A stretch of DNA of 62,734 bases from Alphaproteobacteria bacterium (GCA_017470585.1 JAFUYI010000002.1:1-62734); one strand, 5' to 3'. Numbered from the stretch's first letter, positions 7,264 through 62,649 are shown. Made by a program: numbers and translations. Notes: a model not told the origin generated them from the letters alone.

Positions 7264-7740
7264 CTAAAGATTATAGTTTATGGTTATTACAGAACTGTAA
7301 TCTCCGCTTGTTGGAACGGTATCGTAATCTAACATATCATACACAAACTCGAAAGTATTATCAGAAATGTGACCAAACCAAGCATTATTTAAAGTAATGC
7401 CTCCGAATTTAAAAACTGAAGGGGTTACAGTAAAACAGGGGCTATCGGAAACTTTGCATGAATCAGCAACATTGGCAGTAAATCTTCCCCATTGTGTACC
7501 GGTTATGGAAGTTATACCATAAGCGCATTTATAACTGGTGCTTTCGGAAATACAAGCTCCACCTTCGGTATTAGACGGGTCAATAGTTATTGTACCGACA
7601 TTATAATCTCTGGTTACTGTTAAACTAACATCGTGGGCGATTGTGGCTGTTACGGTCATTGTCGACGAATTGCCCGCGTAAGCGCAGTATGAACCTATGG
7701 ACACCGCGGCAACACCAAGTAATAAAATATATTTTTTCAT
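7264..7740 (-). CDS. Secreted DUF4402/Csu-pilin-like protein, copy 1 (type A N-terminus)
   Basis: Signal peptide, TMTVTATIAHDVSLTVT, FTANV, C-terminal GDYSSVITINY strand; family assignment by motif resemblance only. Confidence 0.7.
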   Translation of the reverse strand: MKKYILLLGVAAVSIGSYCAYAGNSSTMTVTATIAHDVSLTVTRDYNVGTITIDPSNTEGGACISESTSYKCAYGITSITGTQWGRFTANVADSCKVSDSPCFTVTPSVFKFGGITLNNAWFGHISDNTFEFVYDMLDYDTVPTSGDYSSVITINYNL

Positions 7741-7988
7741 CTTAAAAACTTCCTTTTTTTAACGTTAAAAAAACCACCTGTTGGGCTTTAGCCCGCGAGG
7801 TGGCTGGAAGTTAACGACTGTACTATAGAACAGTGTTGGGTATTCTTTATATTCCCCAACCTTCCAACCATAAAGGCTGAAAGTATTTTTTACGTTTTTC
7901 TTAAACGCTATAGTAGAGGTCGTTACACCTCAAAGTGACTTTTCATTCACTTCAAGTCTAAACTAGCATAAAAAAATCTGATTGTCAA
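7741..7988 (-). ncRNA. Promoter plus structured leader (attenuator-like), copy 1
   Basis: TTGACA-N17-TAGTTT; pairings TAACGAC/GTCGTTA, TACTATAG/CTATAGTA, TGGTTGGAAG/CTTCCAGCCA; terminator CCACC/GGTGG plus T tract. Confidence 0.85.
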
Positions 7989-8006
7989 AGAAAAATTTTG
8001 AAAAAT

Positions 8007-8996
8007 TTATTTCTTATGTCCGCCGAAACCGGTGCCGATTTTGCGACCGATTGCCTCAATTTTCATTCCGATGCAGCTTCGGCAATGAATTGGCGTATCA
8101 TTAACGCAAATCTTTCCCGGATAAAGTTCATAAAACCTTCTGTATTCACCCTCGGTAACATTGGGCATTACCACATTGGCTCCCGCTTGCAATGCCATAA
8201 TTCTCCCCTTGGGGTGCAGGCTTTCCATAGCGGTTGTGGCAGGAATATTTATATCATTCATTAAAATTCTCATTACTGCCATAGTTCGCAATGCCAAATT
8301 AAGACTTCCTCCCTGCTCTGAAGCAAGCGGGGTTTGCGGATGAGGAATAAAAGGACCAATTCCTGCCATATCAACGCCGATATTTTTAAGAAAAAGCAAA
8401 TCATCGGCAATAGATTCTATTGACTGCTCTGGAAGTCCGACCATAATTCCGGAACCGAGTTCGTAACCCAATTCTTTTATCATCATTAAACAATCAAATC
8501 TATGCTGCCAGCTCATAAGCGGATCAAGCTTATGGTACAAATCTTTATCGGTGGTTTCAATTCTCATTAAATATCTGTCGGCTCCGGCATTTCTCCAAGC
8601 CTTATATTCATTATACGTTCTCTCGCCGATACTCAAAGTTATTGCCACATCAAATTTTTTGATTGCCTCAATAATTCTGCACATTCTGTCGCAATCATAA
8701 TATAAATCTTCTCCGGATTGCATAACTATGGTTTTAAAGCCGATACCGGCAGCCTTTTTAGCGGTTTCAATCAATTCTTCTTCGCTCATGTGATAGCGTG
8801 TAACTATTTTATTACCGCGGCGAATACCGCAATATAAACAATTATTGCGGCAAATATTGGAAAATTCTATCAATCCTCGCAAATGCACTTCATCACCGAC
8901 AAATTGTTTGCGAATATCGTCGGCTTTTCGGAATAAATCTTTTTGATTTTCTTCATCTTTTAGGAGTTTTATACATTCTTGCCTGCTCAAATCCAT
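8007..8996 (-). CDS. hydE: [FeFe]-hydrogenase maturase HydE (radical SAM)
   Basis: RGLIEFSNICRNNCLYCG, GPFIPHPQTPL, GANVVMPN, YELYPGK. Confidence 0.93.
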   Translation of the reverse strand: MDLSRQECIKLLKDEENQKDLFRKADDIRKQFVGDEVHLRGLIEFSNICRNNCLYCGIRRGNKIVTRYHMSEEELIETAKKAAGIGFKTIVMQSGEDLYYDCDRMCRIIEAIKKFDVAITLSIGERTYNEYKAWRNAGADRYLMRIETTDKDLYHKLDPLMSWQHRFDCLMMIKELGYELGSGIMVGLPEQSIESIADDLLFLKNIGVDMAGIGPFIPHPQTPLASEQGGSLNLALRTMAVMRILMNDINIPATTAMESLHPKGRIMALQAGANVVMPNVTEGEYRRFYELYPGKICVNDTPIHCRSCIGMKIEAIGRKIGTGFGGHKK

Positions 8997-9115
8997 AAAA
9001 TTTTGCCTTTTTCATTATTTTTTTGTTTTTTAGTATAAAAAATGTTTGACTTTTTGTCCATAATGCGGCACAATAGTGTTGATAACTAAATTATTAACCA
9101 AATTTTTTTAAAATT

Positions 9116-10153
9116 ATGCAAAACTACATTTTCTTAACCAATGAAAGTGCCAACAAGGGTTATAGCTCAAGTGTCAAGGCTCTCGCTGCAACAGTTGAAA
9201 ATCCTACAATCATCGATGCTGCCGATCTGGGCAAGACCGAATTTCCCAAAGGAGCCGTCCTGGTTTCCGCCGGAAACATGGGATTCGAGATGGTAAAAAA
9301 GTACAGCTCCTCCCACGATGTTGTGCTTGCAACAGATCGCTATGCCTACGAAGACCTGGACGAGCTTGGTCTCGGTGTAACGCTCATCGCGCCCAAGTGC
9401 GAGATTGAAAAGTACGCCGCCGCAACCAAGAAAGAAGTTCGCTTCGTTGCCGCCGATCTGGTTGCCTCTCCCAAGGCCGAAGTGATGCGCGGGTATGCCG
9501 GGCATTTCATCAGCGACAATGAAAGCTCGGTAACCGACATCATTTTCAAGGTCAGACCGACCTATTTCTTTTTCTTCGGCGGGAGAGTTTCTGCCCCCAC
9601 GGCAGACAATCCTGACAACTGGAAGGAGAATACGGTCGAGCAGTTTGCCTCTACGGCTGAGGGTATCATGGCTGATGCTGGCGGTGAAGACATTTTCTTT
9701 GTCTTCCACGGGCTGCGTTCACGCACCCGCGGCGACAAGAGCAACGATTTTGCTCCACAGAACGCAGCTTTCGATGTGATGCGCCGCCGTCGTCAGGCAG
9801 GGCAGAGTGTGTTCGTCCTGGTCACGACAGAGATTGGCTCAACCTTTATCGTGATGAACGATGAGGGAGAGAAGATGACATCGGTTAACAACGCCAACGC
9901 CGGAGGGTATTATTTCGCTCTTTGGCAGGCAATACAAACCGATGGCTTCATTTCGTTTACAGCCGAGCAGATGAACCTGACCAACGAGGCTCTCACTCTT
10001 GGTGCAGACTGGGGACTTCTCCGTCCGGTTGGTCAAAAGGACGGATGGAACCTTACAGTTCCCGCCAACGAGGCAACTCACGAGAATGTCTTTGACCTGC
10101 TCGAGAAAGGCGGCAAGCCTTTAACGCAGGTTGAAGCTTTCAAGAAGCTCTGA
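9116..10153 (+). CDS. Hypothetical protein
   Basis: 345-aa ORF with upstream AT-rich region and downstream hairpin; no family recognised. Confidence 0.7.
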   Translation: MQNYIFLTNESANKGYSSSVKALAATVENPTIIDAADLGKTEFPKGAVLVSAGNMGFEMVKKYSSSHDVVLATDRYAYEDLDELGLGVTLIAPKCEIEKYAAATKKEVRFVAADLVASPKAEVMRGYAGHFISDNESSVTDIIFKVRPTYFFFFGGRVSAPTADNPDNWKENTVEQFASTAEGIMADAGGEDIFFVFHGLRSRTRGDKSNDFAPQNAAFDVMRRRRQAGQSVFVLVTTEIGSTFIVMNDEGEKMTSVNNANAGGYYFALWQAIQTDGFISFTAEQMNLTNEALTLGADWGLLRPVGQKDGWNLTVPANEATHENVFDLLEKGGKPLTQVEAFKKL

Positions 10154-10193
10154 AAATGTAAAGAAAGAGGTGCTGCATATGCGGCACCTTTTT

Positions 10194-10748
10194 TTATTCG
10201 GGGTCATAAGAAATGGTCAATACTCCGGTTTTAACACCGGTGGTAAGGGTTGATATATCAGTTATAAAACAGTTTGGTGATACGGCAAAAGTATTGTTTA
10301 TTAAATGTTGTATATAAAATTGACAGGAATTGCCTTTTCCGAATAATCCGTTAATCCAATGATTGTTATTTCCGATAGCACTCAAACCACCGCAGGATAG
10401 ACTTCTTGAATTACAGGATTCGGGGTCTGGTATGTTGGCATTAAAGGTTCCGAAAGTTATATTGTCGGCTTTAACAACCGTATTTCCGCTTATTCCTTGT
10501 GCTGTTCCGTCACCGTGATATGTCCACCATGAATCAGCTGTTGCATTGGGATTGATATAAATTGTTCCCATATCTATATCAGAGGTAACATCTAAATTTG
10601 CATCCGCGCTCGCGGTTTTGGAATTGCCTAAAACCACTTCGTGGTCGATGGTGGTCGAAATTTCAAAATTTTCGGATACTGCGGTTGCATTATAAGCAGT
10701 GTATGAAATGCCTGCTAATAGAAGAATTAAAAAAGTTTTGTTTATCAT
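10194..10748 (-). CDS. Secreted pilin-like protein, copy 2 (type B N-terminus)
   Basis: MINKTFLILLL...AVSENFEISTTIDHE, FNANIP..CN...SCGGL, LTISY; start moved to 10748. Confidence 0.7.
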   Translation of the reverse strand: MINKTFLILLLAGISYTAYNATAVSENFEISTTIDHEVVLGNSKTASADANLDVTSDIDMGTIYINPNATADSWWTYHGDGTAQGISGNTVVKADNITFGTFNANIPDPESCNSRSLSCGGLSAIGNNNHWINGLFGKGNSCQFYIQHLINNTFAVSPNCFITDISTLTTGVKTGVLTISYDPE

Positions 10749-10997
10749 CTGACTTCCCTTTATGGTTTTCTGTCTTAAAAAAACCACCTTTCGGGCATTT
10801 GCCCTAGAGGTGGCTGGAAGTTAGCTACTGCAGTATAAAACAGTGTCGGGTATTCTTTATATTTCCCAACCTTCCAACCATAAAGGCTGAAAGCACTTTT
10901 ACGCAAGTGTATAACGTTATACCGGAGGTAGCTACACCTCAAAACAGGATTTCCCTGCTTCGATTTTTACCCTAGCATAAAAAATTCTTATTGTCAA
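10749..10997 (-). ncRNA. Promoter plus structured leader, copy 2
   Basis: TTGACA promoter; TAGCTAC/GTAGCTA and CGGTATAA/TTATACTG (G-U) pairings; same antiterminator and terminator. Confidence 0.85.
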
Positions 10998-11035
10998 AGA
11001 AAAATTTTATAGTTTTTTATTATTCTCCGCCCTCA

Positions 11036-11370
11036 ATTGTCCTCCTAACCCCAATTGTCGTCCTAAACATCCCCTTTGTCGTCCTGAACTTGTTTCAGGA
11101 CCTCAAAAAAAGATTCCGAAACAAGTTCAGCTCTCTTTCCTTTTTATGTCGGGCTTGACCCGGCAATCCAGGTCTATAATTTAGCAAATTGTTTTACCTG
11201 GACACCGCATCAAGTGCGGCGTGACATAAGAGGGGAGGAGGCTGAATAGATAAGCGGCGCGACATAGGAAGGGAAGGACACCGAAGAGATGCGAGGGGTG
11301 ACGAGGGGGACAGTCAAAAGACACACTCGTTCCGCACTCGGAGTGGGGAACGGTGGCTGAAACGCTCAAA
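11036..11370. repeat. REP/RPE-like palindrome cluster
   Basis: GTCCTGAACTTGTTTCAGGAC, CCGCATCAAGTGCGG; ~11165-11290 is directly repeated at ~28213-28340. Confidence 0.8.
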
Positions 11371-11440
11371 AGCCATTTGGTATTTTTGAATAAAATCGGC
11401 TATAGGTATTTAATACATACGGGGTGGATTATCCTTGCGG

Positions 11441-12910
11441 TTAGTCTTTAAAACAAATACCGTCTTTCCATTTGCCGCCGCATTGCTGGCAAGAATCATA
11501 CCCCAAATTTCTTATATCAGCAGGGCATTTCAGGCATTCATAGTTCAATAAATAGCGTTTTCCTCGACAGGCTCCTTCACATTTCCACTCATTAAATTCC
11601 AAGTTTATCCGTTTATTAGAATCGCAACTCCAACAATGCCCCACCGTATCCATAAGCGGTGTATCTTTCGGGCATTTTAAAACACTTGGAGGATTTCCGC
11701 CGGCGGTATTGATGATTTCTCTGTTTTTACAAACGGCATTACATTGTTTTACTTTGTCAAAATTACATGGCGTATCAACTACTATCTCTTCTTGCGTATT
11801 GCAAGAGTAACATAAATTATTCCACGATTTCAGAGGCTTATCCGACGGACAAACAGTATTATCTGCACCGTTTGGTTCGCCTTTATATCTTTCCCATGCG
11901 TGTTTCAATGGTTTTTGTCCTTTTAGTAAACAATTTCCATCTTGATCAACGTAACGATTTGGGCAAACTTCGCAATTCTGAATATCTATGTCTGAAATAT
12001 ATTCCCATTCCGTCTCGCAAGAATAACAACTTCCTTCTTTGTCGCGTAACGGTGCGTTCTGCGGACATTCTTTTAAGGCACAATTTGCTGTGCTCGGGTG
12101 GCTTCCGCGATGTTCAAGGTTATAAGAGCGGTTAGGACAATATTCTTCGCAAATATACGGAGATCCGACTTCAAAACTCAACAAATCATCACAAGTATAG
12201 CAATGAGTTGAAGATTTAAACGCACACATTTTTTGCTGTGATTTTTGCAAATCTTTTGCATTGCGGCATTTTTCCTGATACCATACTCCTTGACAGGTCG
12301 CGCATTCGCTTCGTGATAAATACTCTTTATTTTCAGGACACTTATAGCTCCAATCTACATCTAAATACCGTTTATTGAGACAAAATTCGGCGTTAGTTTC
12401 TTGATTAAAGCTTAAATCAATCGGTGTTTCTTCATCGCAGCTCCAACACATAAAAAATCTGTCCATTAGCGGTCGGTCTTTCGGACATTTCAGGACACTG
12501 TAAGCGGAAGTTGAACCTGTATAATGAATCATGCGATTTGGGCATTGTTTGATATGGTCTTCTTTCGAATCATTCCACGAAAGACTTACGGCTTCTGTTG
12601 TATCGCAAGAATAGCATTTATCAAAAGATCCCGAAAAAAATCCTTCTTTACTGCATTCTTTATCATTTGTAGAGGTGTCTTTATAAATTGAAACCGCTGT
12701 ATTTTCATCTAAATCGCAAGAAGCATATTTTCCTTTACGTTCGGAAATGCGGTTCGGACAGTGTTTTAAGCAGTTATCAGGCGTTCCGACTCTTAATGAA
12801 TAAGGTGTTTTGCAATCAAAACATTCGCCCTTAACATTAAATATGCAATCTTTCGCTTGGGCGGCTTTTAGCATACATACCATAAAGAATATCAATAAAA
12901 ACTTTTTCAT
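11441..12910 (-). CDS. Secreted cysteine-rich repeat protein
   Basis: Signal peptide; repeated CPxDxPL...CW/YSC, CxxxCPNR and CxxCxGxW units. Confidence 0.8.
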   Translation of the reverse strand: MKKFLLIFFMVCMLKAAQAKDCIFNVKGECFDCKTPYSLRVGTPDNCLKHCPNRISERKGKYASCDLDENTAVSIYKDTSTNDKECSKEGFFSGSFDKCYSCDTTEAVSLSWNDSKEDHIKQCPNRMIHYTGSTSAYSVLKCPKDRPLMDRFFMCWSCDEETPIDLSFNQETNAEFCLNKRYLDVDWSYKCPENKEYLSRSECATCQGVWYQEKCRNAKDLQKSQQKMCAFKSSTHCYTCDDLLSFEVGSPYICEEYCPNRSYNLEHRGSHPSTANCALKECPQNAPLRDKEGSCYSCETEWEYISDIDIQNCEVCPNRYVDQDGNCLLKGQKPLKHAWERYKGEPNGADNTVCPSDKPLKSWNNLCYSCNTQEEIVVDTPCNFDKVKQCNAVCKNREIINTAGGNPPSVLKCPKDTPLMDTVGHCWSCDSNKRINLEFNEWKCEGACRGKRYLLNYECLKCPADIRNLGYDSCQQCGGKWKDGICFKD

Positions 12911-13191
12911 AATTTTTCCGTTATCGTTTAAATATACTGTTTAGGCTATATTTTATAAAAATACTTGTCAATTATAATTTTTCAGTTATCGGATTGTACT
13001 TTGCAATTTTTTGCAGATAAATCAATAGAATGATTTTCCTTTTGTCTTTCAGTTGTTTTAGTGTAAATGGAGTTTTTTTATAAAAAAGGTGTATAAATAA
13101 TAGGATCAAACCATTTTTCAAATTTTTGCAAACATAGCGCAAAATCTGGGCTTTAATGGTATAAAAAATATCCACCGCTTAAGGTAGGTAT

Positions 13192-13217
13192 TTTTTATTG
13201 GTCGGGACTATAGGATT
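13192..13217 (-). repeat. Duplicate of the tRNA-Pro 3' end (att-like)
   Basis: 26 bp identical to 13378-13403 (TTTTTATTGGTCGGGACTATAGGATT). Confidence 0.85.
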
Positions 13218-13384
13218 GTCCGCGACATTGCTAAAGCAATGCTTGTTCCACTGCGCTCATCGGCTAATCGCCGACCGGCACACCCCAGTGTGCCTCTCGC
13301 TCGTAGTCGAACCTACTTCTTCGTAGGTTCGAACCCATACCCCAAGACCAACAAAAAAAGACACCATAAAGGTGTCCTTTTTAT

Positions 13385-13461
13385 TGGTCGGGACTATAGG
13401 ATTCGAACCTACGACATCTTGCTCCCAAAGCAAGCGCTCTACCAGACTGAGCTAAGTCCCG
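13385..13461 (-). tRNA. tRNA-Pro(UGG)
   Basis: CGGGACT acceptor, TAGCTCAG D-arm, anticodon loop TTTGGGA, GTTCGAATC T-loop, encoded CCA. Confidence 0.96.
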
Positions 13462-13548
13462 AAAAAGTAATTAACGAATATCACAAAAAAATATTTTGAC
13501 AATAACTTTTAAGCGGTTATTGACATAAAAATCAATTTGCTTCTTAAA

Positions 13549-13575
13549 GGCGGAGAGGATTTTTATCCCTCCGCC
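13549..13575. terminator. Terminator of cassette copy 3, shared with copy 4 (18290-18316)
   Basis: GGCGGAGAGGAT...ATCCCTCCGCC. Confidence 0.75.
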
Positions 13576-13589
13576 AGATTTGTTTTTAT

Positions 13590-14126
13590 TTAGCCGCCGG
13601 CAGAATAACTGATGTTAAGTGTGCTAGGGTGCTCGCCAACGGTAACTTGAGATATATCAACTATTCCACAGCCGGAAGGAAACACATTAAAGCTGTTAGA
13701 ACTTCCGCTGTATTTAATCTTAAAAATACAGAAACTGCTATCATTTCCGCCAAAGAAATCATCAATCCAATTTTCGTTATTTCCGTTAACACTCAATCCT
13801 CCACAGGAATCAGATGCTGTATTGCAAGCGGAAGGATTGGGGATATTAGCCGTAAAAGTGCCGACCGTGGCATTTGGGGCGGAGACAATCGCTCCTTGAT
13901 CATCTAAACTTATCACCCCCGAATCGCTGTAAGTAAAATATGTATCCTCTCCGGTATAAGCAGGATTTATGGTAATTGTGCCAAAGTCTATATCTCGAGT
14001 TACAGTCAAGCTCACGTCGTGGGCAATCGTTGCTGTTACGGTCATTGTGGCAGTATTTCCGGCATAAGCGGCGTAACTGCCAAGGGCAACTGCGGCAATG
14101 CCGAGCATTAAAATATAATTTTTCAT
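13590..14126 (-). CDS. Secreted pilin-like protein, copy 3 (type A)
   Basis: ATMTVTATIAHDVSLTVTRDIDFGTITINP; CN..SDSCGGL; LNISY. Confidence 0.72.
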   Translation of the reverse strand: MKNYILMLGIAAVALGSYAAYAGNTATMTVTATIAHDVSLTVTRDIDFGTITINPAYTGEDTYFTYSDSGVISLDDQGAIVSAPNATVGTFTANIPNPSACNTASDSCGGLSVNGNNENWIDDFFGGNDSSFCIFKIKYSGSSNSFNVFPSGCGIVDISQVTVGEHPSTLNISYSAGG

Positions 14127-14395
14127 AAGTCTTACTTCCTTTTTTTATTAAAGTTATAAAAAAGAAACCACCCGTTGGAGCTGTATGCTCCGCGAGGTGG
14201 TTGGAAGTTGAGAACTGTTGTATAGTACAGTGTTGGGTATTTGGTCAAACCTTATTTCCCTACCTTCCAACCATAATATACGGCTAGAAGCAATTTTATG
14301 TCTTGATGGGACACTATACAAGAGGTTCTCACACCTCAAAGCAGAATTTCCCCTGCTTCAGTTTTCAAGCTAGCACAAAAATTTCTTATTGTCAA
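14127..14395 (-). ncRNA. Promoter plus structured leader, copy 3
   Basis: TTGACA-N17-TAGCTT; TGAGAAC/GTTCTCA and TTGTATAGT/ACTATACAA pairings; terminator. Confidence 0.85.
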
Positions 14396-14445: not shown

Positions 14446-14508
14446 AATGTTGCAAAAATGAATTTGCAACATTTTTTGCAACATTTTTTAAAATTTGCAA
14501 CATTTTTA
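14446..14508 (+). repeat. 63-bp perfect direct repeat (left)
   Basis: Identical to 16181-16243; contains three TTTGCAACATTTTT units and one inverted AATGTTGCAAA. Confidence 0.92.
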
Positions 14509-16143
14509 TTTGTTGTTTTGCTTGTTTAATATCCAATTTTTGCCTACAATCTTTAAGGCTCCTTCTTTTTGAAGGGAAGATAGCAACCTGTATGCTTGAT
14601 TTGAAGTTAAATCAAGCATTTTTGCTATTTCATTTCTTGATATGTTATTATTTGCAGAAAGCAGCTCGATAATTTTATTCTTAATATCATTTTGATTTGC
14701 TTTCGTGATTCTTACAGATGTTGTTTTCAATGTTCCTTTCAAAAAGTAAATCGGATTATGTTCATCAAGCAATTCAATCCAATCTTTTTGTAACAAACCT
14801 GATATTATTTCTTTTGCAAACGTTTCTGTGGTTTGTATTAACGCTGCAATTTTTTTCAAATTCATACTTCTCTGATAGAACAAAGCGTTAAGTATCAACA
14901 TTTCATATAAAGAAGGGGTTCCCAAACTCATAATATATTTACAAAACTCAATATTTGCGGTTCCTCCGGCAAGTCTGACAATGACACTGTTTTGATTTGA
15001 ATAAGAATAATCCGGAGCAGGTCTTCCGTATTTTGCTTGAGAGTAGTAAATTATATCAATTCCTCTTCCCGATGTTTCAACAAATTTGAGTTTCATCATT
15101 GCTTCTGACAGCCTGCGATTTCTCGGAGTCGGCGGCATTGAAAGTAAATTATCTATGGTTATACCTTCAAGAAAACCTCCTGCTGATGTAACTCTTAATT
15201 CTGTTGAAAAAACCTGTATTTGTATCCCGGAATGCATTGTATAATCGCGATGAACAAAGGCGTTAGCAAAAGTTTCTCGCAACGCTACTTCAGCATATTC
15301 CGGAATGGTAATACTTCTTCCGTTTATGAATATTTCGTTGGAATTTCTCAATAATTCCGGCTTTTTTAATAGTTCCGGAAACAATCTGGAAATAGGAGTA
15401 TAATATTTTTCATTACGCAATATTTCTCCGGTTTTTCCGAAAACCTGATATTGAACAAAATGGTTAGGAATATGGTTCTGAATGGAATCTTCTTTACCGA
15501 ACAGCAATAAACAAGCAATATTCGGTCTATTGTCTTGTGTGAGCAACCCAAGTGATTTCAAAATATTTACCGAATCTTTGCTGTATATTTCCATATCCGC
15601 CGGCGATTGGTTGTTTTTCAATATTTCCGAAGCCGTCAAAGATACCAATTCTAAATCCACATCATCAATGGATACTCCGTTTAAAACGGTTGCCGATAAA
15701 TCATTCATCCCTAATCTGGTGGTATTTCTTATAATTTCATCAATAGACATTGGTAAATTTTGCGGTTTACCGTGACTGTCTAACTGTCTTTTTAAATACA
15801 AACCGCTTGAAGTGGAAATAACATCTAAACTCTTTTGAACAGAAATCATCACTACAGTTTTTTTATTGTAACTTATAAAAAGAACTTTAGTTGTTAAAGC
15901 CGGACGGGTTCTCTCACGTATCATACCTTCTAAAGCCTGGGGATTACCGGATGCGGCTCTTTTGCTTCCTAAAACCCGTGCGTCATCAGATACTCCGACC
16001 AAAATTACGCCGCCTTCTGCATTTGCCATACTGACACAAGCTTTTATAATAAGTTCATCGCCGAAACTGCTTTTACTATCATCTTTGTATTCCACGCAAA
16101 GCGTTTCACCTGACAAATATTGTGTTAAATCAAGTTGTTCCAT
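14506..16143 (-). CDS. AlbA_2 (Schlafen-like) plus HATPase_c_4 plus winged-HTH protein
   Basis: GETLCVEYK, SMANAEGGVILVGVSDD, ALRETFANAFVHRDY, PRNRRL, ETSGRGI, C-terminal HTH; start moved to ATG 16143. Confidence 0.82.
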   Translation of the reverse strand: MEQLDLTQYLSGETLCVEYKDDSKSSFGDELIIKACVSMANAEGGVILVGVSDDARVLGSKRAASGNPQALEGMIRERTRPALTTKVLFISYNKKTVVMISVQKSLDVISTSSGLYLKRQLDSHGKPQNLPMSIDEIIRNTTRLGMNDLSATVLNGVSIDDVDLELVSLTASEILKNNQSPADMEIYSKDSVNILKSLGLLTQDNRPNIACLLLFGKEDSIQNHIPNHFVQYQVFGKTGEILRNEKYYTPISRLFPELLKKPELLRNSNEIFINGRSITIPEYAEVALRETFANAFVHRDYTMHSGIQIQVFSTELRVTSAGGFLEGITIDNLLSMPPTPRNRRLSEAMMKLKFVETSGRGIDIIYYSQAKYGRPAPDYSYSNQNSVIVRLAGGTANIEFCKYIMSLGTPSLYEMLILNALFYQRSMNLKKIAALIQTTETFAKEIISGLLQKDWIELLDEHNPIYFLKGTLKTTSVRITKANQNDIKNKIIELLSANNNISRNEIAKMLDLTSNQAYRLLSSLQKEGALKIVGKNWILNKQNNK

Positions 16144-16180
16144 TTTTTGCTCACAGATTGTTTTTTTATGCAAATAATAT

Positions 16181-16243
16181 AATGTTGCAAAAATGAATTT
16201 GCAACATTTTTTGCAACATTTTTTAAAATTTGCAACATTTTTA
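16181..16243 (+). repeat. 63-bp perfect direct repeat (right)
   Basis: Identical to 14446-14508. Confidence 0.92.
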
Positions 16244-18340: not shown

Positions 18341-18886
18341 TCAGCTCGGTGTATAGCTGATGGTCAAAGTTCCGTTATGCCTGCCGGGGGTAACTTGAGA
18401 TATATCTTCTATGTAGCATTGATCCGGAAAGACCGTAAAATTGTTTCCACTTCCGCTATATTTTATTTGGAAACCACATAAATTATCAATAGGATGAGAA
18501 CCATTGCCGAATAAATAATAGATCTCATTACCGGAATTTCCTGTTACACTCAATCCTCCGCAGGAATCACTGTGAGTATTGCAATCTTGCGGATTGGAAA
18601 TATTGGCAGTAAAAATACCTACTGTGGCATTATCTGCCGAAACAATCGCTCTTTTATTATGGTAACTGAATACCCCGGATTCATTATATTGCCACTCTGT
18701 ATCCCATTCGTCATAAGCCGGGTTGATGGTGATTGTGCCAAGGTTTATATCTTGAGTTACACTCAAGCTCACATCGTGGGCGATTGTTGCTGTTACGGTC
18801 ATTGTGGCGGAATTGCCGGCGTAGGCGCAATAAGAACCTATGGACACTGCGGCAACGCCGAGCATTAAAATATATTTATTCATCAT
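18341..18886 (-). CDS. Secreted pilin-like protein, copy 4 (type A)
   Basis: MMNKYILMLGVAAV, SATMTVTATIAHDVSL, GTLTISY; start trimmed to 18886. Confidence 0.72.
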   Translation of the reverse strand: MMNKYILMLGVAAVSIGSYCAYAGNSATMTVTATIAHDVSLSVTQDINLGTITINPAYDEWDTEWQYNESGVFSYHNKRAIVSADNATVGIFTANISNPQDCNTHSDSCGGLSVTGNSGNEIYYLFGNGSHPIDNLCGFQIKYSGSGNNFTVFPDQCYIEDISQVTPGRHNGTLTISYTPS

Positions 18887-19155
18887 AAAAACTTCCTTCT
18901 TTAGTTTCTTTATAACTTTAATAAAAGAAACCACCTTTTGGGTTATTCACCCTAGAGGTGGTCGGAAGCTAGAAACTGACACTTGAATCAGTGCAAAGTA
19001 TTTGATGTATCTCTTATTCCTTTGCCTTCCGACCATTATAGTAGGAAGAATTTTTACGTTTTTCTTAAAAACGTCAAGTGAGAGGCTTCTAGACCTCAAA
19101 GCGGCTTTTCGCTCACTTCAATTCCTACCCTAGCATATAAAATCTTTTATGTAAA
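18887..19155 (-). ncRNA. Promoter plus structured leader, copy 4
   Basis: TTTACA-N17-TAGGGT; CTAGAA/TTCTAG and CACTTGA/TCAAGTG; TGGTCGGAAG/CTTCCGACCA (compensatory change). Confidence 0.85.
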
Positions 19156-19746: not shown

Positions 19747-19748
19747 AA

Positions 19749-20045: not shown

Positions 20046-20120
20046 TTATGCCCATAAACTCTGTCTTTTTTACGGCACTGCACACCGAGATTTTTCGCCT
20101 CAATGTCAAGTGATAACCGA

Positions 20121-20219
20121 AAAATTTTAACCATTTTCCCTCTGAAAAGTGTCAAAATTTTAACTATTTTCCCTCTGAAAAGTGTAAAAATTTTAACTAT
20201 TTTCCCTCTGAAAAGTGTA
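20121..20219. repeat. 3 x 33-bp tandem repeat
   Basis: AAAATTTTAACYATTTTCCCTCTGAAAAGTGTM at 20121, 20154 and 20187, no spacers. Confidence 0.9.
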
Positions 20220-20269
20220 AAAACAGTTTGTTTTTTATTTGAATTAAAACAAAAAATTCAAAATTTTGC

Positions 20270-20527
20270 TTGATTTTAGGAAAAATGTATGTTACGTTAG
20301 CCTTGAAACGGGTGAAAAGCCGTTTTGAGGTGTGAGAACCTCTTCCATGATGTCCGAAAAAGACATAAAATTTGCTTCTAACCGTACTATGGTTGGAAGG
20401 TCGGGAAATATAAAGAATACCCGGCACTATTTCATGGAATAGTTCTCAACTTCCAACCACCTCGCGGGCTAAAGCCCAACAGGTGGTTTCTTTTTTATAA
20501 CTTTAATAAAAAAAGGAAGTTTTTAAG
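20270..20527 (+). ncRNA. Promoter plus structured leader, copy 5
   Basis: TTGATT-N17-TACGTT with TG; TGAGAAC/GTTCTCA, TTCCATGA/TCATGGAA, TGGTTGGAAG/CTTCCAACCA; AACCACCT/AGGTGGTT plus T tract. Confidence 0.87.
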
Positions 20528-24512: not shown

Positions 24513-24815
24513 CTAATAAGGGATTCGCCTCACGCAGCTGTTTCCGTCATAGCTGTAATTGGCAACTCTTCCGTTGATGATTGTAAAACGGGCATTACAC
24601 CACCTTGTGGAACAATGTCCCTCAAAGCAGCTGAATTTTTTATCTTCATATTGCAGAAAACGTTGTGCCTCGGAGTTATATACGGAAGTAGGATTGCCGA
24701 ATCTTCTTATAAGTTCCGATTCGCTTATTCCGACAGCCGAAGCCAGTCTTTCTTCATAATAATTGACACAGCCGCTGCAAAATATCACTAAAAGCAAAAA
24801 AATATATTTTTTCAT
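24513..24815 (-). CDS. Small lipoprotein under the cassette leader
   Basis: Lipobox CSGC; GISESELIRRFGNP...C-ARF; not homologous to the pilin-like family past the signal peptide. Confidence 0.75.
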   Translation of the reverse strand: MKKYIFLLLVIFCSGCVNYYEERLASAVGISESELIRRFGNPTSVYNSEAQRFLQYEDKKFSCFEGHCSTRWCNARFTIINGRVANYSYDGNSCVRRIPY

Positions 24816-25083
24816 CTCTTAAACTTCCCTTTTTTAAGTTTTCTATTGATAAAAAAGAAAACCACCCGCGGGGATATATCCTGCGAGGTGGCCGGAAGTT
24901 TGTGACTGACTGTTAGCTCAGTGCGAAGTATTTGGGCAAGCCTTATTCCTTCGCCTTCCGACCATATCGGCAGGAAGATTTTTACGTTTTCTTTGGAAAC
25001 GCTAACAGGAGAGGTCACAACACCCCGAAGCGACCTTTAACTCGCTCTGAAATTACCCTACCATAAAAAAATTTTTATGTCAA
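24816..25083 (-). ncRNA. Promoter plus structured leader preceding the lipoprotein gene
   Basis: TTGACA promoter; TTGTGAC/GTCACAA, CTGTTAGC/GCTAACAG, TGGTCGGAAG/CTTCCGGCCA; terminator. Confidence 0.83.
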
Positions 25084-28039: not shown

Positions 28040-28500
28040 TGAACACCACAAGCTGTCGTCCTGAACCACCAAGCTGTCGTCCTGAACTTGTTTCAGGACC
28101 TCAAGATTCCTAAACAAGTTCGGCATCCTTTCCTTTTTATGTCATCAATGCCGGGCTTGATCGGATTATCCATTCCCCTCACTGACGTCATCAATGCCGT
28201 GCTTGACACGGTATCCAGGTCTATAAATAAGCAAATTGTTTTACCTGGACGCCGCATCAAGTGCGGCGTGACATAGTAGGGGAAGAACGCCGAATAGATA
28301 GGCGGCGTGACATAGGAGAGGAAGGATACCGAAGAGATAGCGGCAGGTGACGGGGAGAATCTTAAAAATAGATTCCTAAATAAGTTCGGATGATAAGGGA
28401 GAGTAAGGTCGTATACCAGTTTTGTCATGCTGAACTTGTTTCAGCATCTATTTTTTGAGATCCTGAAACGAGTTCAGGATTGACAAAGGAGGGTAAGGAT
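28040..28500. repeat. REP/RPE-like palindrome cluster
   Basis: Same motif set as 84-460 and 11036-11370. Confidence 0.8.
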
Positions 28501-29149: not shown

Positions 29150-29414
29150 AGTTTAACGTCCTTTTCATATTAAAATTTAAGATGAAAAGCTGCGCTCGTG
29201 AAACTCAAGAGGCGCAGCCGGATGTTGATCACTATAACGTATAATAGTCCCGCATATTAAGCTTGGCAGCATATTCTGCAGGCATCCGGCTGCATAATAA
29301 AGCCAGACTGCCGATTTATGTTTCGGCACAAACAAAACGTTAGAGGCGATCAAACCCCAAAGCGAGAATCACTCGCTCCAAAATTAAGTTAACATATCGT
29401 TTGATTTGAATCAA
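29150..29414 (-). ncRNA. Highly diverged structured leader, copy 7
   Basis: TTGATT-N17-TAACTT; GCAGCCGGATG/CATCCGGCTGC replaces the antiterminator, GCTGCGC/GCGCAGC the terminator; TTGATC/GATCAA and TAACGT/ACGTTA pairings. Confidence 0.82.
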
Positions 29415-34940: not shown

Positions 34941-35193
34941 TTGACAATAAGATTTTTTTGTGCTAGCTTAAATTTGAAGTGAATGAAGATTCACTTTGAG
35001 GTTTGAAGACCTCTCTAATGTCGTTTATGCTAAAACGTAATTTAGTTTGTCCGCCTTTTTGGTTGGAAGTCTGCAAAATATAAAGAATATGCGGAACTAT
35101 TACATTAGATAGTCTTCAACTTCCAGCCACCTCGCGGGTGAAAAACCCAACAGGTGGTTTTTTTTATGACGTTAATAAAAAAAGGAAGTTTAG
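34941..35193 (+). ncRNA. Promoter plus structured leader, copy 9 (reference copy)
   Basis: TTGACA(34941)-N17-TAGCTT(34964) with TG; TTGAAGAC/GTCTTCAA, TCTAATGT/ACATTAGA, TGGTTGGAAG/CTTCCAGCCA; terminator 35127-35165. Confidence 0.88.
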
Positions 35194-41338: not shown

Positions 41339-41583
41339 CTTAATTTATTAACGTCATAAAAAAGAAACCACCTGTTGGGTTTTTCACCCGCGAGGTGGTC
41401 GGAAGTTGATAGCTGTTACTCGAAACAGTGTGCAGTATTTGGTATTCCTACACCTTCCGACCATAATTCGGTCAGAAGCAATTTTATGTCTTGATAGGAC
41501 ATCGAGTACGAGGCTATCACACCTCAAAACGAATTTCTCTTCGTTTCAAGTGGCACCATAGCATATTTTTTTATGCAAATCAA
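41339..41583 (-). ncRNA. Promoter plus structured leader, copy 10
   Basis: TTGATT-N17-TATGGT; TGATAGC/GCTATCA and TACTCGA/TCGAGTA; internal hairpin shortened. Confidence 0.83.
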
Positions 41584-47088: not shown

Positions 47089-47361
47089 CGTGCTTCCCTT
47101 TACGGTTTCTTTATTTACACTAAAAAAAGAAAACCACCTGTTGACTCTTGAGAGCCGCGAGGTGGCTGGAAGCGGAAAACTGTACTATAGAACAGTGCAA
47201 AGTATTTGAGTTGCCTCTTATTCCTTTACCTTCCAGCCATTGTTATAGCAGGAAGAATTTTTACGTTTTTCTTAAAAACGCTATAGTAGAGGCTTTCCGA
47301 CCTCAAAACGGAATTTTCTCCGTTTCAGATTCAAACTAGCACAAAAATTTTTTGTTGTCAA
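47089..47361 (-). ncRNA. Promoter plus structured leader, copy 11
   Basis: TTGACA-N17-TAGTTT; CGGAAA/TTTCCG, TACTATAG/CTATAGTA, TGGCTGGAAG/CTTCCAGCCA. Confidence 0.85.
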
Positions 47362-51512: not shown

Positions 51513-52034
51513 TTATTGAATGTATTCTATAACAATATTTTGGCCAAACTCTCCCGATTGCGGTATGGCAGTATTATCCCATGAAATGGAATTATACTGA
51601 AATTTGAATTTATTGTCCGAATCATAAATTATATAGGGACGCTCCATTATTGTATTTCCAAGTTGTATGTTAGGAGCCCTAAAGCAAGGATGATCAATGC
51701 CTGAATCAGCATTGAATGCTATACCATCAACCTTGCACCAATCGAGGACATTGGCGGTAAAAGTACCGATGGAAAATCCGCTGTATGATGTTATGTTGCC
51801 GGTTTTAGATGACATTCCCGAACCATCAGTTGCAAATTCTATTACTCCACCTTGTGACCAATCAGCACCGGGGTTGACGGTAATTGATCCCATATTTAAG
51901 TTGTGAGTTACGGTTAAACTGACATCATGAGTTACCGTCACGGAAACATTCATTGTATCGGAGTTGGCAGCGTACGCGGCATAAGAGCCTAGAACGACTC
52001 CGGCAACAGCGGTCAATAAAATATATTTATTCAT
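51513..52034 (-). CDS. Secreted pilin-like protein, copy 12 (diverged type A)
   Basis: MNKYILL, SDTMNVSVTVTHDVSLTVT, FTANV, HPCF; start trimmed to 52034. Confidence 0.7.
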   Translation of the reverse strand: MNKYILLTAVAGVVLGSYAAYAANSDTMNVSVTVTHDVSLTVTHNLNMGSITVNPGADWSQGGVIEFATDGSGMSSKTGNITSYSGFSIGTFTANVLDWCKVDGIAFNADSGIDHPCFRAPNIQLGNTIMERPYIIYDSDNKFKFQYNSISWDNTAIPQSGEFGQNIVIEYIQ

Positions 52035-52286
52035 ATCTAAACTTCCTTTTTTTATTAAAGTTATAAAAAACCACCTGTTGGGTAAAATCCCGCGAGGTGG
52101 TCGGAAGTTAGCAACTATCATTCAAATAGTGCAGAGTATTCTTTATATTTCCCTGCCTTCCAACCAAAAAAGATCGGATATACCAAATAACGTTTCGGTT
52201 AAAACGTGAATGAGAGGTTGCTACACCTCAAAACGGCTTTTTATTCGTTTCAAAGTCACCATAGCATACTTTTTATTCCGAATCAA
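52035..52286 (-). ncRNA. Promoter plus structured leader, copy 12
   Basis: TTGATT-N17-TATGGT; TAGCAAC/GTTGCTA and TCATTCA/TGAATGA. Confidence 0.85.
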
Positions 52287-54987: not shown

Positions 54988-54990
54988 TTT

Positions 54991-55704: not shown

Positions 55705-55779
55705 TTTAAACAAAAAACTGGACAAAATATTTTTTTCGTGCTAATATGAGTTCGTAAAGCAGGTTTCAGGGAGGAAAAA

Positions 55780-56943: not shown

Positions 56944-57072
56944 ACTAAATTTTAAGTCCTATTATTAAAAAAATGTAAAAATAATGAAAATTTGACAAAA
57001 AAGTACTTGCCAAAACATATTTTTTGTGATAAAGTGCTTGCAAAAATAAGGTTTTAGATAGGAGACAAAACA

Positions 57073-59787: not shown

Positions 59788-59867
59788 ATAAATAAAAAAA
59801 CAAACCCGATCGCAAGACCGGGTTTGTTTTTTACGGTGAGTTTATTTCGGTGAGATAGAAGGTCTTT

Positions 59868-60437
59868 TTAACTCGGAGTGTAAGTGATAGTCAATGATGC
59901 TGTTCTGGTTGCGGGAATAATGTCGGATACAGTGTCCAGATAGCAATGAGAAAGAAACACTTTAAAGAGATTTCCTTCCCCGCTGTATTTTATGTAAGAA
60001 TGGCACCATTTTTCACCACCACTTCCGAAAGGATATACAGCACTACGATAACCTCCAAAAACTTCCAACCCTCCGCAAGAATTGGTTGCCGTATTGCAAG
60101 CTTCGGGATTTGCAATATTAGCGGTAAAAAAGCCGACCGATTGATTATCAGCTCTGATGATCGCTCCTTGATTGTTGTAACCTATTATTCCCGAATCAGT
60201 ATATCCCCAAGTTGTAGGGTCTCCGCTATATATCGGATTGATATAGATTGTGCCTAAATTTATATCACCTTTTACATCCAAATTGGCATCCGCGCTTGCG
60301 GCTCTGAAATTGCCTAAAGTTATTTCGTGGTCGATGGTGGTGGATATTGCAAAGTTTTCGGAAACAGCTGCAGCATTATAGGCAGTATAAGATAAGCCTA
60401 ATAATAAAAGAGTTAAAAAAGTTTTGTTTGTTGTCAT
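59868..60437 (-). CDS. Secreted pilin-like protein, copy 13 (type B)
   Basis: AVSENFAISTTIDHEITLG, FTANIANPEACN..NSCGGL, LTITYTPS. Confidence 0.7.
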   Translation of the reverse strand: MTTNKTFLTLLLLGLSYTAYNAAAVSENFAISTTIDHEITLGNFRAASADANLDVKGDINLGTIYINPIYSGDPTTWGYTDSGIIGYNNQGAIIRADNQSVGFFTANIANPEACNTATNSCGGLEVFGGYRSAVYPFGSGGEKWCHSYIKYSGEGNLFKVFLSHCYLDTVSDIIPATRTASLTITYTPS

Positions 60438-60707
60438 CTAAACTTCCTTTTATGGTTTCTTTATTTGCACTAAAAAAAGAAAACCACCTTTTGGGCATTC
60501 AAACCCGCGAGGTGGCTGGAAGTTTCCAACTGACTAGTAGATCAGTGTGAAGTATTTGGATTATGCCTTATTCCTCCACCTTCCAGCCATAATAGCAGGA
60601 AAAATTTTACGTTTTTCTAAAAACGCTACTAGAGAGGTTGGAACACCTCAAAACAAGATTTTCCTTGTTTCGATTTTTAACCTAACATAAAAAATTGCGC
60701 TTGTAAA
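60438..60707 (-). ncRNA. Promoter plus structured leader, copy 13
   Basis: TTTACA-N17-TAGGTT; TTCCAAC/GTTGGAA and CTAGTAG/CTACTAG. Confidence 0.85.
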
Positions 60708-60808
60708 GAAAAATTTTGATTTTTTGCTCTCTTGTTTGCGATGATGCAGAAAAATAAAACTAAAAAATAAAAAAAACTCGCAACCGGAAACGGCGGCGAG
60801 TTTTTTAA

Positions 60809-61363
60809 TTAGTCTTTTCGAGGTTTGTAGGCAAGTTCATAAACTCTCTTTGCCGCATTTAAACGAGGATCCGTTTTAATGATAGTTTCGACTTCAGGAA
60901 GCAGTTTATAACGCCGGGCGTAACCAAAAGGCAAATTGCAGAAATTATTCAATCCATGGTTGTTGACACTGAAGATCATTTGCTGAAATGCTTTATCCTG
61001 CTCGGGGTTAATGCCCAGTTCGGCAATATTATTCCAAAATGTCCTTTCCAAATATCCGTAGCTGTTGATATAAGCCAGACAGTCACCATCGTGCATAAGC
61101 TGTGGCGTAGCTTCTTTGAACCACGCATCCATTGCATTGACCTTGCGTTTGTCGGGGTTATAAACATTAACCTTTTTCAACTTCTGCAACAGCAGATTGA
61201 AAGAAAGATTATCATAACAATACTCACGGAGCTTTAAGTTCCTTACTTTCGGAGGAGGAGTTTCAAGGTGCATTGTTTTTTTGCCATGACCTGCCAGATA
61301 AAGTACGACTGTGATAAACAACAGTAAACAGCAGATAATTGCCAATAAATAATAATTTTCCAT
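60809..61363 (-). CDS. Hypothetical membrane-anchored protein
   Basis: N-terminal TM, 184 aa, terminator hairpin downstream. Confidence 0.62.
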   Translation of the reverse strand: MENYYLLAIICCLLLFITVVLYLAGHGKKTMHLETPPPKVRNLKLREYCYDNLSFNLLLQKLKKVNVYNPDKRKVNAMDAWFKEATPQLMHDGDCLAYINSYGYLERTFWNNIAELGINPEQDKAFQQMIFSVNNHGLNNFCNLPFGYARRYKLLPEVETIIKTDPRLNAAKRVYELAYKPRKD

Positions 61364-61519
61364 ACGCTTGTTATTTTAGTTAATAATACATTGATAAAAT
61401 TATAAGTTTCTATCCGCCTTTTAGCAGAGAAAACGGAAGATGTCAAGCAGCAGAGTTTTGCATTTTTACATTTTTACTCTTTTCCGCTTTCCCCGTCCCC
61501 CTTGTTTTTTGCAGTCCCT

Positions 61520-61815
61520 TTCTCGTCACCCCTCGCACGGAACATCGTTCCGCGCGTCATGGGGTCTCATGACATCAAGTCCCCAGCTTGTCTTGCTGAA
61601 CTTGTTTCAGCATCTATTTTAAAGGTCCTGAAACGAGTTCAGGACGACAATTGGGATTATTCAGAACGACAATTGGGGGAGTTCAGCCTTTCTCCTATGT
61701 CACGCCGCTCATTTCTTCGGCGTTCTTCCCCTACTATGTCACGCCGCACTTGATGCGGCGTCCAGGTTAAAAAATAAGCCGATTTTAGACCTGATGCCAA
61801 AGTCAAGCCTGACAA
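61520..61815. repeat. REP/RPE-like palindrome cluster
   Basis: GCTGAACTTGTTTCAGC, GTCCTGAAACGAGTTCAGGAC, GTCACGCCGCACTTGATGCGGCGTCCAGG. Confidence 0.8.
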
Positions 61816-61872
61816 TGAAGTTTAAGTATGTGAGTAGAGAGCAGGGAATAATAAAAACTTTTAAATTTCTTC

Positions 61873-62136
61873 TTTACATTACTGATTTTTTATGTTAGGG
61901 TAATTTCGAAGTGAATGAAAAGTCACTTTGAGGTCTGATAGCCTCGTAAGTACCGTTTGTATCAAGACGTAGTTTGATATGTCCGACTTTTATGGTTGGA
62001 AGGTAAGGAAATAAGATTTATCAAATACCTTACACTATTGTACTTAATAGTTATCAGCTTCCAACCACCTCGTCTGCTTGTCGGGGTGGTTTCTTTTATT
62101 AAAGTTATAAAGAAACTAAAAAAAGGAAGTTTGAAT
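61873..62136 (+). ncRNA. Promoter plus structured leader, copy 14
   Basis: TTTACA-N17-TAGGGT; CTGATAGC/GTTATCAG (G-U), TAAGTAC/GTACTTA, TGGTTGGAAG/CTTCCAACCA; terminator. Confidence 0.86.
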
Positions 62137-62649
62137 ATGAACAAATATATTTTAATGCTCGGTGTTGCAGGCGTTGTTTTGGGTAGTTATGCCGCCTATG
62201 CCGGAAACTCCGCCACAATGACCGTTACTGCAACGATTGCTCACGATGTGAGTTTAAATGTAACAAGAAATATCAGCTGGACTATGACCATTGATCCAAG
62301 TCAAACTTATGGCGATATTGACTGGATAGGAGAGAATGATGGTTGCGAAGTTGAAAACAACGGTGATGGTATTATTTCCGCTTCTATGACGGCGGGACGA
62401 TTCACTGCTAATATTCCTAATCCTGCCAACTATAGAAATGTGCTGTCATTTGAGGAAAGCTATGCTTGGAATGATTTAGTTATCAATAGCAATGAATATG
62501 GCAATAAATTTGTTATTCAACTGGTAATTGACCATGTAAGCGGTTACGAATTTGCAGTGGCGGGACTTCTACATTATGATGGTGTTGTTCCTGCTCCTAA
62601 AGTTTATGACTTCGGCAGTGTAACTATCCAATACACTCCAGAATCATAA
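62137..62649 (+). CDS. Secreted pilin-like protein, copy 14
   Basis: MNKYILMLGVAGV, SATMTVTATIAHDVSL; start trimmed to 62137. Confidence 0.72.
   Translation: MNKYILMLGVAGVVLGSYAAYAGNSATMTVTATIAHDVSLNVTRNISWTMTIDPSQTYGDIDWIGENDGCEVENNGDGIISASMTAGRFTANIPNPANYRNVLSFEESYAWNDLVINSNEYGNKFVIQLVIDHVSGYEFAVAGLLHYDGVVPAPKVYDFGSVTIQYTPES

Follow-up and report, generated by a model that had tools for sequence, protein, structure and literature searches.

The closest described systems to the one reported here are the archaic (sigma) chaperone-usher pili, such as Csu of Acinetobacter and CupE of Pseudomonas (PMC9452303, PMC10104325, PMC4654587, PMC6003481). A second point of reference is the RNA motif sRNA-Xcc1, which has been placed upstream of symE in Xanthomonas integron cassettes and upstream of an ORF6N gene in the APSE phage. 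The third is provided by the variable surface-protein families of Neisseria (pilE/pilS), Anaplasma (msp2), Borrelia (vls) and Helicobacter (bab), which consist of many paralogs with conserved ends, variable centres and shared patches. Herein we analysed a stretch of 62,734 nucleotides from an Alphaproteobacteria bacterium (GCA_017470585.1, JAFUYI010000002.1:1-62734; hereafter "the window"), corresponding to contig C30 of a 102-contig genome, which carries 14 copies of a family of small exported proteins, each preceded by a structured RNA leader. The family extends over the whole genome, and in our preferred reading, to which we assign a probability of roughly 0.6, its ~250 dispersed Sec-exported β-sandwich proteins are subunits for one divergent, archaic-like chaperone-usher machine that is encoded on a different contig, C88.

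The family members of the window were placed by listing and translating its open reading frames (ORFs), with start codons chosen to align across copies. As a preliminary description of the same DNA had reported, there are 14 paralogs of 158–189 aa, standing as single-gene units on both strands:

7264..7740, minus strand: family copy 1, 158 aa
10194..10748, minus strand: family copy 2, 184 aa, type B, VSENF N-terminus
13590..14126, minus strand: family copy 3, 178 aa, the copy used for modelling
18341..18883, minus strand: family copy 4, 180 aa
20528..21025, plus strand: family copy 5, 165 aa
25232..25726, minus strand: family copy 6, 164 aa
28643..29149, minus strand: family copy 7, 168 aa
34147..34665, minus strand: family copy 8, 172 aa
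35194..35682, plus strand: family copy 9, 162 aa
40841..41338, minus strand: family copy 10, 165 aa
46564..47088, minus strand: family copy 11, 174 aa, type B
51513..52034, minus strand: family copy 12, 173 aa
59868..60437, minus strand: family copy 13, 189 aa, type B
62137..62649, plus strand: family copy 14, 170 aa

These copies align end to end, with 24–75% identity to copy 1, and have six residues in common throughout (T33, H36, D37, G85, N90 and Y156). Each is solitary and flanked by housekeeping genes, which from their translations we take to be lpxA/lpxB-like, radA, mlaEF-like, secDF, pta/ackA and nrdD-like. A signal peptide opens all 14, and behind it lies an alternating strand rich in threonine that comes in two types, GNSATMTVTATIAHDVSL and VSENFxISTTIDHE (type B), the latter in copies 2, 11 and 13. 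The shared motifs named in the preliminary description are real, and the C-terminal strand is near-universal ([IVL]-x-[YF] in 242 of the 245 distinct copies that we found in the genome, see below), but two of them are less strict than had been claimed: FTAN is exact in 10 of the 14 window copies (178/245 genome-wide) and GTITI.P in eight (117/245). An AxA signal-peptidase motif is found in 239 of the 245 distinct copies, and 204 have an even number (2 or more) of mature Cys residues.

In order to count the family across the genome (1,554,495 bases, 94% complete, 0.7% contamination), a hidden Markov model (HMM) from the 14 window copies was searched against all stop-to-stop ORFs of at least 60 codons (E ≤ 1e-3). 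It matched 284 ORFs, 253 of them full length (end-to-end cover of the model) and representing 245 distinct proteins, so that the expansion to hundreds of copies that had been extrapolated from the window is borne out. The family coding sequence occupies 131,880 bases, or 8.5% of the genome, which by arithmetic rises to an estimated ~13% when promoters and leaders are added. Copies are spaced ~5.5 kb apart (124 on the plus strand and 121 on the minus strand), and the family splits into two clades of 191 and 50 members. Median pairwise identity among the 245 distinct copies is 45%, the median to the nearest neighbour in sequence is 69%, and no pair reaches 90%. Genomic neighbours are about as similar as random pairs (median identity 0.46 vs 0.45), and six of the 245 copies have their closest paralog on the same contig, against 3.8 expected. 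The proportion of synonymous differences (pS) is 0.59–0.79, i.e., synonymous sites are saturated in every segment, which together with the low identities indicates that the expansion is old. Contrasting the loops with the rest of the protein, a check that had been suggested beforehand, the ratio of nonsynonymous to synonymous divergence (dN/dS) is ~0.4 in two variable stretches vs 0.15 in the first 55 codons and 0.13 around FTAN, and because saturation extends throughout, the conserved ends are kept by purifying selection and not by recent homogenisation. Some sequence exchange between copies does occur: exact shared stretches of at least 30 nt within the variable body are found in 115 pairs, nine of which are less than 60% identical as proteins.

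The proteins show remote likeness to the Pfam family DUF4402 (PF14352). When the genome was searched in six frames with DUF4402, family copies scored 14.8–18.6 bits, all below the gathering cut-off of 25.2 bits, and the weak tail of an exhaustive profile search with the family contained proteins of the same size that pass DUF4402 at 94.2, 86.8, 60.9 and 25.3 bits. Aligned with hhalign, the family and the retrieved DUF4402 proteins match at a probability of 99.5% (E 1.6e-22, 163 columns), a figure that is partly circular because the DUF4402 set was retrieved with the family profile, signal peptides included. In the Atlas, which scores language-model likeness, a DUF4402 cluster lies at 0.93. These comparisons suggest that the family is a remote branch of DUF4402, as distinct from a member in the Pfam sense. 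Against the sequences of solved structures, the family profile gave no match at E ≤ 10, and the DUF4402 set gave only signal-peptide matches (E 0.07 or worse). An AlphaFold2 model of copy 3 built on a 96-sequence alignment (predicted local distance difference test, pLDDT, 86.3; predicted template modelling score, pTM, 0.77) is an all-β sandwich, in line with the immunoglobulin-like pilin fold that had been proposed. Foldseek returned no match to this model at E ≤ 1e-3, its top match being self-complemented FimA (E 1.9e-3, probability 0.98). A Foldseek-independent search (VIA-wide) placed Caf1 first (Z 5.2 over 107 aa, 3.3 Å), followed by the PapG pilin domain, CssB, PapA and PapF, while a second look at the Foldseek list with VIA gave six FimA entries at Z 4.9–5.8 (next match 3.4), the best covering 114 aa at Z 5.8 (model residues 23–177). 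All three structure searches thus point to chaperone-usher pilins with modest scores, and in the model the N-terminal strand of the family appears to occupy the place of the FimA donor strand.

Contig C88 is the only place in the genome with above-cut-off matches to Pfam PapD_N and DUF4402. The PapD_N match (24.7 bits, cut-off 23) lies at C88:58347-58643 next to DUF4402 genes (83.8 bits at this locus), which agrees with the earlier statement that no assembly genes accompany the window copies and with the expectation of a single assembly locus elsewhere in the genome. The products of the C88 locus are a 311-aa protein that carries two DUF4402 domains, a 276-aa PapD-like chaperone, for which NCBIfam gives weak fimbrial-chaperone matches, and a 1116-aa protein with CarboxypepD_reg domains, which is usher-like in that the nearest Atlas clusters to its residues 200–760 are Usher/TcfC (0.92–0.93, 204–216 shared features). 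No leader was listed before the C88 operon, and none of 24 candidates was a shorter homologue of its DUF4402 domain. A chaperone of the C88 type occurs in 8 of the 29 genomes of the genus. One of these relatives, G007, has an operon in the order 176-aa single-domain gene, tandem-DUF4402 gene, chaperone and usher-like gene, the first of which is the sole match to the family profile outside this species and aligns with the first 60 residues of the family (79.6%, E 1.5e-5). We infer that the dispersed family descends from an operon-borne subunit gene of this kind.

Contact between the C88 chaperone and a dispersed subunit was modelled with the mature chaperone (4-row alignment) and mature copy 3 (96 rows). 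The interface score (ipSAE) was 0.81, 0.78 and 0.78 in three runs (scored 0.78) vs 0.01 for the best control; in calibration, 58 of 80 solved complexes attained the mark applied to such models, as did 2 of 110 mismatched pairs. Contacts agree between the runs to at least 90%, with a partner pLDDT of 83 or more. In the model, chaperone residues 160–177 are in register with subunit residues 161–178, giving parallel strands, and chaperone residues 21–26 contact subunit residues 36–42, with subunit residues 23–35 outside the interface. The predicted contact has donor-strand-complementation geometry, as known from the PapD and Caf1M complexes.

A conserved structured leader of ~200 nt lies upstream of all 14 window copies, and the window contains a 15th; the preliminary description had overlooked both. 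Leaders in the genome were counted with nhmmer and those in relatives with a covariance model. The genome holds 268, of which 253 are followed by a family start codon 23–55 nt downstream; of the other 15, ten are cut by contig ends and two stand before lipoprotein-like genes, one of which lies within the window, as follows:

7767..7933, minus strand: leader core of copy 1, R1 174.6 bits, used for structure analysis
10777..10942, minus strand: leader of copy 2
14161..14339, minus strand: leader of copy 3
18924..19099, minus strand: leader of copy 4, whose three-way junction gives a sub-threshold sRNA-Xcc1 match
20325..20493, plus strand: leader of copy 5
24513..24815, minus strand: 100-aa lipoprotein-like ORF behind the 15th leader
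24855..25028, minus strand: 15th leader, no family gene after it, R1 131.1 bits
25757..25929, minus strand: leader of copy 6
29183..29360, minus strand: leader of copy 7, the most divergent, 119.5 bits
34697..34872, minus strand: leader of copy 8
34996..35164, plus strand: leader of copy 9, divergently oriented from copy 8
41361..41527, minus strand: leader of copy 10
47127..47306, minus strand: leader of copy 11
52064..52231, minus strand: leader of copy 12
60477..60651, minus strand: leader of copy 13
61928..62096, plus strand: leader of copy 14

The second lipoprotein case is a 193-aa lipoprotein on contig C101, whose relatives elsewhere in the genus likewise carry the leader. Within the genus the leader is present in 27 of 29 genomes (2–14 copies each in the relatives), and within the order in 139 of 151 genomes and in all 20 genera (20/20). 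In relatives it precedes genes for lipoproteins, OmpA-like barrels, type IV pilin-like proteins and small membrane proteins, and hence looks like a general regulator of surface-protein genes. Examples from other genera include L019 and L021, with type IV pilin-like genes that have a G-RSMIEMLGVLAIIG N-terminus; in L008 and L022 the leader stands before OmpA-like barrels. Genomes of genus g29 (e.g., G131, G089 and G108) have at least 18 leader copies each, with the protein family not found there, and further leader-linked expansions may exist in that genus. No Rfam family reaches its gathering score on the leader; for sRNA-Xcc1 (RF02221) the best leader scores 36.9 bits vs a gathering score of 53, and 23 leaders match at E ≤ 0.01, none over the cut-off.

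In a set of 177 distinct upstream regions, conservation begins ~270 nt ahead of the ATG and includes the boxes TTTACA-N17-TGcTAg..T. We read these boxes as a probable promoter; they were not among the sites of a sigma-70 consensus scan (44 sites vs 40.9 expected). From 5' to 3', the leader comprises a hairpin Pa, a hairpin P0 (GAGGU/ACCUC), a third hairpin Pe, a three-way junction (P1 GGUUGGAAG/CUUCCARCC, with P2 and P3) and a hairpin with U-run, after which come AAGGAAGU and the start codon. The hairpin and its U-run, visible in the sequence, are absent from the results of a simple terminator scan. Two further helices cross this main set, with X1 (5 bp) joining the P0 loop to the strand after P3, and X2 (7 bp) joining the strand after P0 to the P3 loop. 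In the 14 window leaders, the 56 pairs are 97.7% paired and 37 show double changes, a result reached by 0 of 500 shuffles (slid controls, 38–46%), and all pairs of X1 (100% paired) and X2 (99% paired) covary. Over 177 leaders the mutual information of X1/X2 is 1.0–1.84 bits, with 94–99% Watson-Crick pairs, and among relatives (15 distinct leaders) X1 pairs in 75/75 cells, and X1 and X2 together in 142/167 cells vs 37–53% when slid. The minimum free energy fold (−74.1 kcal/mol, z −7.2) picks X1/X2 and gives both arms of P1 other partners, an upstream CUUYCNGCC segment for the 5' arm and the ribosome-binding site for the 3' arm. Overall, 95.7% of this nested alternative is paired, but the test of its two added helices is weak: one is 89.7% paired and has 2 double changes, the other is 98.7% paired and 4/6 of its pairs are invariant. 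G-U pairs are tolerated on the sense strand only.

Because X2 takes 7/8 of the P3 loop bases and leaves no linker to the P3 3' arm, P3 and X2 presumably cannot coexist, and the leader would therefore be a two-state element; the remaining helix crossings could form a compact pseudoknot. Covarying conserved structure directly adjoining an intrinsic terminator suggests a terminator-type attenuator. Pairing of the P0 5' arm with a terminator arm was considered as an antiterminator and dropped, since by eye it is not kept in the leaders of relatives. At the other end of the unit, a hairpin with T-run follows the stop codon by ~48 nt in at least 129 of 242 copies; the sequence at this point is not conserved.

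The leader also bears on the assembly of the genome. Contig ends lie within 1200 bp of a family copy in 124 of 204 cases, with the genes pointing inward 107 times against 21, and the breaks are best explained by the repeat formed by the leader and the conserved 5' coding part. A longer upstream repeat was rejected as their cause, as beyond −300 nt only 16–33% of copies share anything. Public contigs (Logan contigs of four DNA gut-metagenome runs from one study, possibly the genome's source) also break within the leader and conserved 5' coding part, and they cover the unique flanks without differences. As contigs break at this repeat, the true copy number may be somewhat above our count. Apparent "joints" between leaders in the Logan contigs are repeat cross-matches and are not evidence of rearrangement, stretches that these contigs leave uncovered carry no information, and a synteny test around ackA in five relatives says nothing about insertion, nrdD not being adjacent there. 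Eight full-length proteins are present twice, on apparent duplicate contigs, and identical family matches occur on the contig pairs C29/C69, C37/C70, C22/C74, C8/C71 and C77/C88, which suggests that these pairs are duplicated stretches of the assembly.

When the family profile was searched against 24 genomes of the same genus and 16 more distant ones, a single marginal match was returned (G007, E 9.5e-4), and there was no match in five genomes of another genus. A profile search of 1.84 billion representatives gave 80 matches at E ≤ 1e-3, and a word-indexed protein search gave 228 proteins, the few named ones being hypothetical proteins of Alphaproteobacteria metagenome-assembled genomes (MAGs). 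RadA of the host is 75–86% identical to that of uncultured gut and rumen Alphaproteobacteria MAGs. Among the genomes searched, the family is found in this species only.

Taken as fibre subunits, the paralogs would each be exported through their signal peptide and AxA site, and capped in the periplasm by the single chaperone, with a chaperone strand lying parallel to the conserved C-terminal strand as in the in silico complex. At the usher-like pore, to which the subunit would then be handed, the next subunit would probably put its alternating N-terminal strand in place of the chaperone strand. The predicted product is surface fibres with core contacts common to all paralogs and exposed loops that differ by copy, which may serve as an antigenic or adhesin repertoire. 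Each gene appears to be an autonomous unit of promoter-like boxes, ~200-nt leader, ribosome-binding site and ORF, usually with its own terminator, and the leader would govern read-through copy by copy, perhaps along with access to the ribosome-binding site. Order-wide the leader would control other surface-protein genes, and in this species it has been amplified together with the subunit gene. A bolder and rather doubtful extension is surface variation without DNA rearrangement, in which two-state RNA gates would release a changing subset of the ~250 interchangeable subunits to one machine, and in which the leader would be an order-wide, riboswitch-like surface regulator related to sRNA-Xcc1.

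The pilin interpretation of the preliminary description is thus supported by the fold matches, the C88 locus, the genome-wide count and a complex model that beats its controls, and none of the three outcomes that the description had named as refuting was observed. Several observations weigh against it. No window copy matches Pfam at E ≤ 1, DUF4402 included, and among 96 family members there was one sub-threshold match to DUF4402 (E 0.082) and one to SCPU (PF05229; E 0.0031, below the cut-off). Accordingly, the earlier DUF4402 call holds as remote homology by profile and fails as Pfam membership, and the placement in the Csu/SCPU class is not upheld. The archaic pilins CsuA/B and CupE are absent among the fold matches listed. 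The fold matches, at Z 4.4–5.8, are under the advised level of Z 8, below which a score can reflect a common arrangement; the likeness to self-complemented FimA is equally compatible with a stable, non-polymerising monomer; and the hhalign agreement is somewhat circular. Pfam Usher matches nowhere in the whole genome, and the usher call for the 1116-aa protein rests on gene position and language-model likeness. The complex model may reflect likeness and not binding, because chaperone-pilin complexes have already been solved. Lastly, seven full-length family copies have no detectable leader, and no copy-specific on/off device was found among the copies.

That the paralogs are instead self-complemented secreted or periplasmic β-sandwiches (a variable coat, binding proteins or decoys) that no longer form fibres is in our view unlikely. 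The best model matches are to self-complemented FimA from residue 23, which would place the N-terminal strand in the protein's own groove, and the even Cys number of 204/245 copies would stabilise free monomers; however, AlphaFold2 monomers of true pilins likewise fold the donor strand back, and the chaperone model ejects this strand from the groove (interface from residue 36). The N- and C-terminal strands are moreover the most constrained (dN/dS 0.15), as expected if every copy has to fit one chaperone and the other copies. The same conserved ends, arranged around variable centres, could also be produced if the copies were a silent archive from which gene conversion supplies one expression site, in the manner of pilS/pilE, and the 115 sharing pairs, nine of them between proteins less than 60% identical, would suit it. 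Yet the 253 genes are complete, down to promoter-like boxes, leader, ribosome-binding site, start codon and signal peptide; no segment has a dN/dS of 1 or more, and no distinct expression locus was seen. Homogenisation must also be weak, because saturation of synonymous sites extends to the conserved 5' part. We therefore hold an archive to be very improbable.

Little more credit is due to the promoter-leader-gene unit being chiefly a selfish mobile cassette, with the folded leader serving its spread and the protein as cargo. Dispersal at one unit per ~5.5 kb, the lack of extra likeness between neighbours and the rarity of closest paralogs on the same contig (6/245) are as such a cassette would leave them, and the related sRNA-Xcc1 travels in integron cassettes (10.1101/2025.06.18.660453). 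On the other side, no transposase or terminal repeats were noticed at the unit ends, where no dedicated search was made, the 3' flanks are not conserved, and the restriction of G-U pairs to the sense strand speaks against it; the 138 other genomes of the order that carry from 1 to at least 18 leaders before unrelated surface-protein genes fit a regulator. An artefact of metagenome binning or assembly as the source of the copy number can be set aside with near certainty: the genome is a 102-contig bin with eight proteins on apparent duplicate contigs, but the 245 sequences are distinct with no pair at 90% or above, 14 copies lie between housekeeping genes in one 62.7-kb contig, contamination is 0.7%, and contigs of the four runs from one study cover the unique flanks without differences.

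Devoting 8.5% of 1.55 Mb to the coding sequence of a single family of small exported proteins is an extreme share for a small genome. Should these proteins be fibre subunits, they would form by far the largest subunit repertoire for a single chaperone-usher machine, DUF4402 would gain a function, and the family would amount to a natural experiment on which pilin positions are fixed and which are free in assembly. The leader, for its part, is a large RNA with heavy covariation that most genomes of a gut-associated alphaproteobacterial order carry ahead of genes for pilins, porin-like barrels and lipoproteins; it belongs to no curated family, and through its likeness the orphan motif sRNA-Xcc1 may be explained as a cis-acting leader.

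Other features of the window include a gene at 11441-12910 (minus strand) for a 489-aa secreted protein of repeated Cys-rich modules (C..C..CP.. motifs). A 12-nt unit, TTTGCAACATTT, is repeated 2.2 times at both 14463-14489 and 16198-16224, on either side of a 555-aa gene (14506-16173), and may mark this as an inserted gene. A 33-nt unit is repeated 3.2 times (95% matches) at 20120-20223, directly upstream of the promoter-like boxes of copy 5. Another short intergenic repeat, with units GTCGTCCTGAAC.. and GCGGCGTGACATA..GAGG.., is found near several of the family units (11040-11290, 232-451, 28045-28344 and 61635-61686) and looks like a miniature inverted-repeat transposable element (MITE)-like element; at position 11204, inside it, public metagenome contigs reach summed depths in the thousands.

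Compared with the archaic pili, the family resembles Csu and CupE in the small size and export of its subunits, in their alternating N-terminal and conserved C-terminal strands, in the joint encoding of a PapD-like chaperone and a large outer-membrane protein, and in the predicted donor-strand-complementation contact. It differs in that its subunits are of DUF4402 type and not SCPU, that the outer-membrane protein is unrecognised by Pfam Usher and carries CarboxypepD_reg domains, and that ~250 orphan subunit genes, each with an RNA leader, are spread over the genome, vs few inside an operon. The classical pilins FimA, Caf1 and PapA are the best structural matches, at 8–15% identity and with no relationship at the sequence level. 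With Pfam DUF4402 the family shares length, signal peptide, the N-terminal T-x-T-x-T strand, an F-G motif ~50 residues in and the C-terminal T-x-x-Y, whereas the motifs TIAHD/TIDHE and FTAN and the Cys pairs are its own. A literature search for "DUF4402" returned no paper, and a search for a comparable chaperone-usher multigene family returned apparently unrelated papers only. Unlike pilE/pilS, msp2, vls and bab, every copy here is a complete, separately promoted gene, and there was no sign of an expression site, an invertible promoter or a repeat-tract switch. The leader is like terminator-type riboswitches and attenuators in having a folded domain directly before a hairpin and U-run, followed by the ribosome-binding site, and like terminator-type riboswitches and multi-state attenuators in having alternative pairings that are both supported by covariation; it is unlike them in its hundreds of copies within one genome, with no Rfam match at gathering score and no known ligand or protein partner. 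With sRNA-Xcc1 (RF02221) it shares a ~85-nt three-way junction, the GG..GGAAGG/CCUUCC..CC closing helix and a 3' CACC, to which it adds three 5' hairpins, the crossing helices X1/X2 and a terminator.

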